Part shown: piece by piece, positions 33,001-36,000 of the stretch
How the letters are laid out: each line of letters begins with the position of its first letter
Position numbering within the stretch: the stretch's first letter is position 1
Assembly: GCF_003334785.1 (NCBI RefSeq)
Contig: NZ_QOWV01000019.1
Origin: Escherichia coli
Lineage (GTDB): Bacteria; Pseudomonadota; Gammaproteobacteria; Enterobacterales; Enterobacteriaceae
Strand: one strand, 5' to 3'
DNA: 64,000 nt
Program-made: the position numbers

Positions 33001-36000
33001 GGATTTTTTGCTGGTTGCCACCGGATAATGTCCGTGCAGCTTGTTCCGGTTGGTTGAATTTAATATTCAGCGCCCGACGATAACGTTCCAGGGTGGCATT
33101 ATCTTTCGCGGTTTTCGCCCAGAATCCACGAAGGTTATGAGTAAGGGCGCAGACGTTCCAGGCCAGCGAAGCATCGAGATTCAGTCCGGATGACTGGCGA
33201 TCTTCCGGCAGATAAACCAGACCGCGCAGTAAACGTTCTCCAGTGGATAATTTATTGATCTCTTTACCATTCAGCATAATGCGTCCGCCACGCAAAGTAC
33301 GCAGACCATAGAGCGTCTCGGCCAGTTCTGTGCGTCCGGCCCCCACCAGCCCAGCCAGGCCCAGAATTTCTCCGGCATTGAGCGTCAGGCTGACATTCCT
33401 GAAACCTTCGCCGGTCAGATTTTCCAGTGTCAGCACCGGCGTTCCGGCGGCATGTTGTGGGCGGTTACCAGGTAACTCCAGCCATAATTTTTGGCTGGCA
33501 GAGAGCGATTTTTCCCGTACCGCTGGGGTGATGGCCTGAATAATGTCGTCGGTAGACAGTTCGCTGGTTTTGCCGCTTAAGGCGATGGTTCCGTCGCGCA
33601 TCACGCTAATTCGATCGGCAATCTGGCGAATTTCCGGCAGCTTATGCGAGATAAAAACAATACCCACGCCAGTAGCAAGCAGCTCTTGCAAGCGACTAAA
33701 CAAGCGTTCGGTTTCCGCAGGGGTAAGCGAGGCGGTAGGTTCATCGAGGATCAGAATCCGCGAGTCGCGCATCAGCCCGCGGAGGATTTCCACCATTTGG
33801 CGATCGGCGACATCCAGCGATCCTGCCAGACTATGCAGATCAAACTGGCAGCCCAGCGCCGCCAGCAAGTTCTTCATTTTCTGCATGGAGAGCTGTTTTT
33901 TTGCCAGCCCAAACAGGATGTTTTCTTTTATCGACAGGCTTGGGAAAAGCAGCGGTTCCTGGGGAACGAGATAAATACCCAGCTGATGAGCATGAACTGG
34001 CGTTAATCTGACGTAGTTGTTGCCCTCAATCTCCAGCGTACCGCTATCAGCAGGGGTAATACCGGCAATAATCTTCATTAACGTCGATTTACCGGCACCA
34101 TTGCCGCCGAGCAGGGCGTGGACCTCCCCCTGATGCAACGTAAAATCGATGCCTTTCAGGACATTGACCCCTGAATACTGTTTATAAACCGAGCGGGCGC
34201 AAAGTAGCGGTAACGCGCGGGTATCACTCGTTTGCATATTTCCCCCGTTCAGTTTTGCAGGTGAGTTTTGAACAAATGTATTTCTGCTTTTAATTTGTTC
34301 ATAACCTTAGGTGGACATTGCACATATTTCCGACGAATAGATCACAATTTATGCTATTTTGATTTTCACGGTTGCGTTTGTTCATGCTCGTAGAGTCAAA
34401 CTGTGGTTGCCATCACAGATATAAATGAGCAAGAACTGAACAATTGCATTAAAGATTTAAATATGTTCAAAGTGAAGAATGAATTATGACAATCAACGAT
34501 TCGGCAATTTCAGAACAGGGAATGTGTGAAGAAGAACAGGTCGCGCGGATCGCGTGGTTTTACTATCACGACGGGCTGACCCAGAGCGAGATCAGCGATC
34601 GTCTCGGCCTGACACGTTTGAAAGTGTCGCGATTGCTGGAGAAAGGGCATCAGTCCGGCATTATTCGCGTACAGATTAATTCTCGCTTTGAAGGCTGTCT
34701 GGAATATGAAACTCAATTACGTCGTCAGTTTTCGCTGCAACATGTCCGGGTGATCCCTGGGCTTGCGGATGCTGATGTCGGTGGGCGACTGGGGATAGGC
34801 GCGGCGCATATGTTGATGAGTTTACTTCAACCACAACAGATGCTGGCGATTGGTTTTGGCGAGGCAACCATGAATACGCTGCAACGCTTAAGTGGTTTTA
34901 TTTCGTCACAGCAAATTCGCCTGGTCACGCTCTCCGGTGGCGTCGGTTCTTATATGACGGGAATCGGGCAGCTTAACGCGGCGTGCAGTGTGAATATTAT
35001 TCCGGCTCCGTTGCGGGCATCCTCCGCTGACATTGCCCGTACGCTAAAAAATGAAAATTGCGTCAAAGATGTTCTGTTAGCCGCGCAAGCAGCGGATGTG
35101 GCGATTGTCGGCATTGGTGCTGTGAGTCAACAGGACGATGCGACAATCATTCGCTCCGGTTATATCAGCCAGGGCGAACAGTTAATGATTGGCCGAAAAG
35201 GGGCGGTTGGCGACATTTTAGGCTACTTTTTTGATGCAAAAGGTGACGTTGTCACGAATATCAAAATACATAACGAACTGATTGGCTTACCTTTAAGCGC
35301 GCTGAAGACCATACCCGTCCGGGTTGGCGTGGCAGGGGGAGAAAATAAAGCCGAAGCAATTGCCGCTGCAATGAAAGGCGGTTATATCAACGCACTGGTT
35401 ACCGATCAGGACACAGCAGCGGCGATTTTACGTAGTTAAATTTGCATGACCTTATTACCGGGAATGATGGAGAACGTATAGAGGAACAGACAGAACGCAT
35501 AAGCCGAGGATAATCTAATGGCTCGACTCTTTACCCTTTCAGAATCAAAGTACTACCTGATGGCGCTGGATGCAGGCACCGGAAGTATTCGGGCTGTGAT
35601 ATTCGACCTGGAAGGCAATCAAATAGCAGTGGGACAGGCGGAGTGGCGGCATCTGGCAGTACCGGACGTTCCTGGTTCTATGGAATTTGATCTCAACAAA
35701 AACTGGCAACTGGCGTGTGAGTGTATGCGCCAGGCGCTGCACAACGCCGGCATAGCCCCGGAGTATATCGCTGCCGTTTCGGCATGTTCGATGCGTGAAG
35801 GCATTGTTTTATATAATAATGAAGGAGCCCCGATCTGGGCCTGCGCCAATGTGGATGCCAGAGCGGCACGCGAAGTTAGCGAACTTAAAGAACTGCACAA
35901 CAATACCTTTGAAAACGAAGTTTATCGCGCGACCGGACAAACACTGGCTTTAAGTGCCATCCCCAGATTACTTTGGCTGGCGCACCATCGTTCCGATATT

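Follow-up and report, generated by a model that had tools for sequence, protein, structure and literature searches.

A 33-bp palindrome as a predicted LsrR operator at the divergent lsrA and lsrR promoters of Escherichia coli

The 64,000-nucleotide stretch of Escherichia coli DNA analysed here (the window, to which all coordinates refer unless a locus is named) includes the divergent control region between lsrA, which encodes the ATPase of the autoinducer-2 (AI-2) ATP-binding cassette (ABC) transporter, and lsrR, which encodes the repressor LsrR. An inverted repeat on the lsrA side of this region is very probably the LsrR operator of the lsrA promoter. The original prediction had named the repeat as a candidate site for LsrR or for another regulator, and the assignment to LsrR is now supported by conservation of the element beside lsrA, by a copy over the lsrR promoter, by a half-site of the DeoR type and by invariant contact arginines in the protein. 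As LsrR is already known to bind near lsrA, the feature is essentially known and the finding is not new in kind. What is added is the definition of the operator as TGAACA-N21-TGTTCA, its in-phase duplication or triplication, and its tie to the operator of DeoR.

The repeat was first described as two perfect 9-bp arms, tgaacaaat at 34269-34277 and atttgttca at 34293-34301, separated by 15 bp, and it is present exactly in this form. Allowing one mismatch lengthens the arms to 13 bp (34265-34277 and 34293-34305). Taken alone, the 9-bp repeat is borderline evidence against chance: arms of at least 9 bp with a spacer no longer than 30 bp arose in 50 of 1,000 dinucleotide-preserving shuffles of the intergenic region. 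It exceeds chance because its arms are the outer portions of a 33-bp unit, TGAACA-N21-TGTTCA, which is present twice. A repeat finder reports the two copies, termed O_A (lsrA-proximal) and O_R (lsrR-proximal), as a 33-nt direct-repeat family with 76% identity; they have the same TGAACA and TGTTCA ends at the same spacing and are offset by 168 bp, with O_A located 31 bp from the lsrA start codon. Throughout the window the pattern TGAACA-N21-TGTTCA occurs exactly twice, starting at 34269 and 34437 and both times in the lsrA-lsrR intergenic region, compared with about 0.005 occurrences expected from base composition. A lone third copy of the right arm, TTTGTTCAT, lies at 34377-34385 (repeat family D3).

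Conservation in other lsr loci, the check proposed for the repeat, was assessed in 80 lsrR loci from genomes of different Enterobacterales species, to which Salmonella and Enterobacter were added (82 loci). The genera include Escherichia, Citrobacter, Kluyvera, Superficieibacter, Serratia, Mangrovibacter, Photorhabdus, Xenorhabdus, Yersinia, Pantoea, Rahnella, Morganella and Hafnia. For position-wise analysis we used the 70 distinct intergenic regions in which both lsrA and lsrR could be placed, anchored on the box. A box adjoins lsrA in all 70 regions, Salmonella included; most match at 12 of the 12 half-site positions and the others at 10-11, nearly all reach 11-12, and the spacer is always 21 bp. 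In 13 loci for which parsing found no divergent lsrA, the same boxes stand just 5′ of lsrR. Counted over the 82 loci, matches at 11 or more of the 12 positions number 127 in 19 kb of lsrA-lsrR intergenic DNA versus 3 genuine ones in about 520 kb elsewhere, which is an enrichment of roughly 1,000-fold.

Within the box, conservation is concentrated at the ends. Across the 70 sequences, the twelve outer half-site positions carry 1.94 bits per position, the 21-bp interior carries 0.93, and the 35 nt on the lsrA side carry 0.14. The interior is 88% A+T, T-rich in its left part and A-rich in its right part. Positions 7-9 and 25-27, the source of the 9-bp arms in E. coli, are complementary in other species no more often than expected from independent columns. 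The conserved element is thus 6 + 21 + 6, and it is its sequence rather than its pairing that is invariant, which favours recognition by a protein and disfavours a hairpin. The unit of 9 + 15 + 9 bp in the original prediction is therefore perfect in E. coli, but it is not the unit that is conserved; similarly, the repeat does lie on the lsrA side as described, yet it is one of two, and perhaps ancestrally three, phased copies rather than a single element.

The half-site connects LsrR with a structurally characterized relative. The operator of Bacillus subtilis DeoR, ATTGAACAAAATTTCAATTACCAATTTACATATGTTCAA, comprises 39 bp with the edges TTGAACA...TGTTCAA (PMC11229326, PDB 8R7Y). According to structural work from 2024, DeoR and CggR bind operators of 39-45 bp as tetramers, in which two DNA-binding dimers are joined via the sugar-binding domains; within a dimer, only about one helical turn separates the two DNA-binding domains, and isolated half-operators are not bound by these SorC-family repressors (PMC11229326). 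LsrR is likewise a member of the SorC family (Pfam PF04198), and the lsrR product of the window gives a full-length phmmer match to the LsrR chains of PDB entries 4L5I and 4GO1, with zero mismatches in the printed alignment. DeoR residues R34 and R39 make base contacts in TTGAACA (PMC11229326); LsrR R44 and R49 align with them and are invariant in 16 LsrR orthologues. The DeoR operator and the LsrR box thus have identical outer half-sites, an AT-rich interior and promoter overlap in common, along with the conserved contact arginines. They differ in the spacer between the outer hexamers, which is 24 bp for DeoR and 21 bp for LsrR, so that an LsrR dyad of 33-35 bp compares with 39-45 bp in the solved SorC operators. 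Moreover, the DeoR interior contains a clear inner TTCAA repeat, whereas that of LsrR is merely T-rich and then A-rich; the effector of DeoR is deoxyribose-5-phosphate, induced DeoR remains tetrameric, and the two proteins share only about 30% identity. The original prediction had remarked that the spacer is unusually long for a simple dimer site. This observation holds, and the long spacing is reminiscent of operators bound by SorC-family tetramers; tetramer binding of the DeoR type would account for it, the two arms most likely being read by the outermost domains.

A second relative, CggR of B. subtilis (SorC/CggR subfamily), resembles the arrangement proposed for LsrR in having a long operator (45 bp) that consists of two half-operators and is bound by a tetramer. 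The CggR tetramer is split into dimers by a phosphosugar, and reviews give the same mechanism for LsrR, whose tetramer is described there as falling to dimers on induction. Unlike LsrR, CggR has a winged-helix DNA-binding domain, recognizes GC-rich direct repeats and occupies a roadblock position at +32 to +77.

Distant homologues, available as one example each, extend the comparison beyond the Enterobacterales. The homologue of the Bacillus cereus group (40% identity) has the same layout of lsrR-lsrK and ABC transporter genes, and its locus (L086) contains a perfect AGAACA-N21-TGTTCT at 2844-2876, 22 bp from the ATPase gene. A second AGAACA follows 72 bp downstream, with a degenerate right half-site. 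At the locus of another homologue (L084, 45% identity), TTATCA-N21-TGATCA and TGATCA-N21-TGATCG occupy 2487-2519 and 2559-2591, 72 bp apart, and a Pasteurellaceae-type locus has TTAACA-N22-TGTTCA. As L086 and L084 keep the geometry and change the half-site, the 6-N21-6 arrangement seems older than the exact half-site sequence; if the 33-bp palindrome is the operator, its 21-bp geometry would predate the half-site, with AGAACA-N21-TGTTCT in the B. cereus group and TGATCA-type ends elsewhere. A further locus (L085) lies outside an lsr context; its upstream region is GC-rich and contains no boxes.

How the palindrome relates to the published LsrR boxes differs between the two promoters. LsrR is reported to repress the lsr operon and itself via two boxes in this region, from which it is released by phospho-AI-2 (PMC5137460 and PMC8487509, citing Xue et al. 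2009, Cell Res 19:1258). The boxes of Xue et al. and those described here agree in locus, protein and logic, with one box per divergent promoter and relief by phospho-AI-2; however, the former are described as short AT-rich words, not as a palindrome, and on the lsrA side these words adjoin the repeat. For lsrR, the published box spans -237 to -197 relative to the lsrA ATG, and AACAAT and AAGATTTAA are its essential words (PMC5137460, PMC8487509). In the window it maps to 34434-34474 and encloses O_R, and its words fall on the outer half-site (34439-34444) and on the centre (34452-34460) of O_R. Since the essential words of the lsrR side are thus inside the palindromic box, what the two promoters share is the palindrome and not the AT-rich words. 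For the 'p-lsrA-box', the words highlighted in PMC8487509 are AAAACT and AAAACTGAA. The stretch that holds them is unconserved, with 0.14 bits per position in the 70 sequences and no conserved columns in a comparison of 13 genera, and the words published for the lsrA side may be displaced relative to the conserved site. Papers of the same school up to 2026 still give the LsrR motif as short AT-rich words.

The boxes occur at characteristic distances. Measured start to start from O_A, a second box is offset by 168 bp in 24 loci, by 167 bp in 4, by 83 bp in 19, by 85 bp in 12 and by 86 bp in 1; nine loci have three boxes, with offsets of 83 and 166-168 bp, and one locus has offsets of 16 and 83 bp. 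A middle box at +83 that matches at 10-11 of the 12 positions is found in Salmonella (L081, 2364-2396), Kluyvera, Superficieibacter, Serratia sp. H1w and Entomohabitans, which belong to the three-box group. The E. coli sequence at +83 keeps TG......TGTTCA only, an 8/12 match, and in Citrobacter, too, only the right half-site TGTTCA is left; this points to a middle box that is decaying in the Escherichia and Citrobacter lineages. Where the offset is 168 bp, the intervening 135 bp are only 35-45% identical between genera yet keep their length, and the distances to the start codons are variable (10-174 bp and -4 to 193 bp). Offsets of 83-86 and 166-168 bp correspond to about 8 and 16 turns of B-DNA, and this helical phasing suggests that bound repressors cooperate across the CRP sites. 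Tentatively, and with a confidence that falls a little short of even, we propose that the LsrR element is a 33-bp palindrome with ancestrally three copies about 83 bp (8 helical turns) apart, and that the tetramers bound to it cooperate or loop the DNA around two CRP sites. Loops of this kind are familiar from the deo, gal and lac systems of E. coli, divergent CRP-dependent sugar operons with phased multiple operators. The lsr region resembles them in that repressor sites are integral helical turns apart and flank CRP sites; it differs in that looping by LsrR is deduced from the conserved spacings of 83-86 and 166-168 bp.

Another arrangement is seen in Photorhabdus, Xenorhabdus, Morganella and Yersinia (L019-L029, L026, L036, L041 and others), where only two boxes are present, 83-86 bp apart. 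No box is located near lsrR in these genera, and the lsrR start lies 109-193 bp past the second box. The second box of Yersinia has a spacer of 20 bp, not 21.

Control of lsr by CRP through two CRP boxes has been reported in the literature. The TGTGG-N6-TCACA site that the original prediction had recognized at 34402-34417 was confirmed; it deviates by one mismatch from the CRP core TGTGA-N6-TCACA, and the position of TGTGG...TCACAG is kept in the 13 genera. CRP-like cores with at most two mismatches occur 30 times in the window versus 28 expected, which is no statistical excess, and the site therefore rests on its conservation and on the literature. It most likely represents the published CRPII. 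The second site, most likely CRPI, contains GATCAC, which is invariant across the 13-genus comparison and at a fixed distance from O_A in the 70 sequences. A figure legend in PMC5137460 gives the order lsrR-box, CRPII, CRPI and lsrA-box, and the same paper places CRPI very near TGTGCAAT, a putative CytR half-site in which a G-to-A change strengthens the lsr promoter. In the window, TGTGCAAT maps to 34317-34324 on the minus strand. It is situated between CRPI and the putative lsrA -10 hexamer and is partially conserved between genera.

As a promoter scan of the region was empty, promoter positions were taken from conservation. In 66 of the 70 sequences, a TAnnnT motif on the lsrA strand is separated from O_A by 2-3 bp, and its three key positions are invariant across the 13 genera. 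The corresponding hexamer of E. coli, TAAGGT, together with the centre of CRPI at 34338.5, would place the start of lsrA transcription near 34297, with CRPI then at about -41.5, and O_A would occupy roughly -4 to +29 of the lsrA promoter. For lsrR, the candidate -10 element AACAAT is 29.5 bp from the centre of CRPII (34409.5) and would set CRPII at -41.5. With an alternative -10 element, AAATAT at 34459-34464, CRPII would be at -61.5. Under either choice O_R would cover the lsrR core promoter.

These features are consistent with a mechanism in which one LsrR tetramer, a dimer of dimers of the SorC/DeoR subfamily, covers a whole 33-bp box. Its two outer helix-turn-helix domains would read TGAACA and TGTTCA, and the two inner domains would touch the AT-rich centre less specifically. 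O_A would start 2-3 bp past the putative lsrA -10 hexamer and span the transcription start together with the first approximately 30 transcribed bases, so that LsrR bound there would block initiation of lsrACDBFG. O_R, located over the lsrR core promoter, would mediate autorepression. The boxes share one face of the DNA and flank both CRP sites, an arrangement that may allow cooperative binding or looping. Phospho-AI-2, which is made by LsrK, is described as binding to the sugar-binding domain of LsrR, whereupon the repressor leaves the DNA. Once LsrR is released, cyclic AMP (cAMP)-bound CRP could activate both promoters.

Several points weigh against assigning the repeat to LsrR in this way. 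The words highlighted for the lsrA promoter lie beside the repeat and not within it. Between the outer half-sites, LsrR boxes have 3 bp fewer than the operator of DeoR (N21 versus N24), and one tetramer per box is an analogy. A consensus promoter scan of the region returned no sigma-70 match, and the transcription starts are inferred only. Finally, the fixed spacing of the boxes among close relatives reflects shared ancestry in part.

In line with the first of these points, the true lsrA-side LsrR site might be the AAAACT/AAAACTGAA pair, with the palindrome serving as a promoter element or as the site of another protein. The Xue group derived the pair from DNase I footprinting and from alignment with the lsrR box, and still uses these words for target prediction; besides, AAAACT and the left repeat arm overlap by one base. 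Yet the stretch of the pair is unconserved and the palindrome next to it is nearly invariant, and we consider this explanation unlikely. It is more improbable still that the repeat is bound by a different regulator, such as CytR, a nucleoid protein with a preference for AT-rich DNA or some other factor, even though the AT content of the interior and the putative CytR site proposed nearby at 34317-34324 would fit such a protein. The box accompanies lsrR in all loci examined, including the 13 without a detected divergent lsrA and that of the Bacillus homologue, and it lies over lsrR's own promoter, as expected of an autoregulator. Its half-site is the same as that recognized by the helix-turn-helix of a homologue whose contact arginines are conserved, whereas nucleoid proteins do not require invariant GC-containing hexamers at a fixed 21-bp spacing.

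We attach very little probability to the repeat forming a hairpin in the lsrA leader RNA that affects mRNA stability, translation or attenuation. The repeat would be transcribed from a start near 34297, and the transcribed strand folds to -9.3 kcal/mol (z = -2.15 versus shuffles). However, covariation is absent: the sequence of the six outer pairs does not vary, and complementarity at pairs 7-9 is at chance level. The hairpin-forming sequence also recurs at O_R and O_M, the remnant of the middle box, in other contexts. A terminator scan of the intergenic region detected no terminator-like site, and an Rfam search with the region gave no match, only sub-threshold small nucleolar RNA noise. An intrinsic terminator or attenuator was rejected on account of the AT-rich stem, the missing U-tract and the lack of covariation. 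That the palindrome arose by chance in AT-rich intergenic DNA, for which arms of at least 9 bp in 5% of shuffles would speak, is refuted by the conservation data and practically negligible, since the repeat is duplicated in the region, kept in about 80 species at fixed spacing and enriched approximately 1,000-fold.

The lsr switch is the standard model of AI-2 quorum sensing in enteric bacteria and is much reused in synthetic biology. A precise operator definition, supported by evolutionary comparison, tells which bases to retain or to alter in engineered lsr promoters, and tetramer binding would give a reason for the odd geometry of the operator. Provided that LsrR recognizes the 33-bp palindrome, the published words of the lsrA-side box are displaced by about 20 bp, and specificity is not determined by the short AT-rich words. 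Such words are still used to nominate katG, ahpCF, fim, cysN and cysP as direct LsrR targets; the operator definition offers a stringent test for the many recent claims of direct targets that are based on them. The accepted picture of how the lsr system works is left unchanged. The TGAACA-N21-TGTTCA symmetry, the third box and the helical phasing are unmentioned in the searchable open-access papers, among which the original report of Xue et al. 2009 is not included, and a literature search for a palindromic LsrR motif, RegPrecise entries or data from systematic evolution of ligands by exponential enrichment (SELEX), chromatin immunoprecipitation with exonuclease digestion (ChIP-exo) or DNA affinity purification sequencing (DAP-seq) returned nothing relevant. 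The features of the region are compiled in Table 1.

Table 1. Features of the lsrA-lsrR region in window coordinates
Feature	Position	Strand	Sequence or centre	Remarks
lsrA	32702..34237	-		AI-2 ABC transporter ATPase, first gene of lsrACDBFG; NCBIfam NF011967, 958 bits; 511 aa
Published 'p-lsrA-box' words	34248..34269	-	AAAACTGAA (34248-34256), AAAACT (34264-34269)	Abut left arm of O_A
O_A, lsrA-proximal LsrR operator (predicted)	34269..34301		TGAACAAATGTATTTCTGCTTTTAATTTGTTCA	TGAACA-N21-TGTTCA; holds the 9-bp inverted repeat
lsrA -10 hexamer (inferred)	34304..34309	-	TAAGGT	From TAnnnT conservation
Second CRP site, most likely published 'CRPI'	34331..34346		Centre 34338.5	Right half GATCACA (34340-34346) conserved; left half cgacg poor
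O_M, decayed middle box	34352..34384		TGCTATTTTGATTTTCACGGTTGCGTTTGTTCA	8/12; only right half-site TGTTCA (34379-34384) intact
CRP site, most likely published 'CRPII'	34402..34417		TGTGGTTGCCATCACA; centre 34409.5	9/10 core positions
O_R, lsrR-proximal LsrR operator	34437..34469		TGAACAATTGCATTAAAGATTTAAATATGTTCA	Equivalent to published p-lsrR-box; conserved across genera
lsrR -10 (candidate)	34439..34444	+	AACAAT	From CRPII spacing and conservation
lsrR	34486..35439	+		SorC-family repressor; NCBIfam NF011947, 619 bits; 317 aa
lsrK	35518-37110			3′ of lsrR

The identities of LsrA and LsrR are given by matches of both open reading frames to NCBIfam equivalogs; lsrC and lsrD come after lsrA, and lsrK comes after lsrR. 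The control region at 34238-34485 (248 bp, 34% GC) is exactly the gap between the divergent lsrA and lsrR genes. It is found with 95-100% identity in 4,179 of 5,426 complete E. coli genomes, in agreement with the E. coli origin of the window, and is absent from roughly one quarter of them; three matches are plasmid-borne. Directly 3′ of lsrK, the window contains an open reading frame of 1,806 aa (37641-43061, plus strand). A 49-bp part of the intergenic query matches, in a single E. coli genome, a gene whose annotation is autotransporter outer-membrane beta-barrel protein. An exact 9-nt direct repeat, CATATTTCC, has copies at 34235-34243 and 34323-34331 with a distance of 88 bp, one of which extends over the lsrA start codon; the repeat is probably due to chance.

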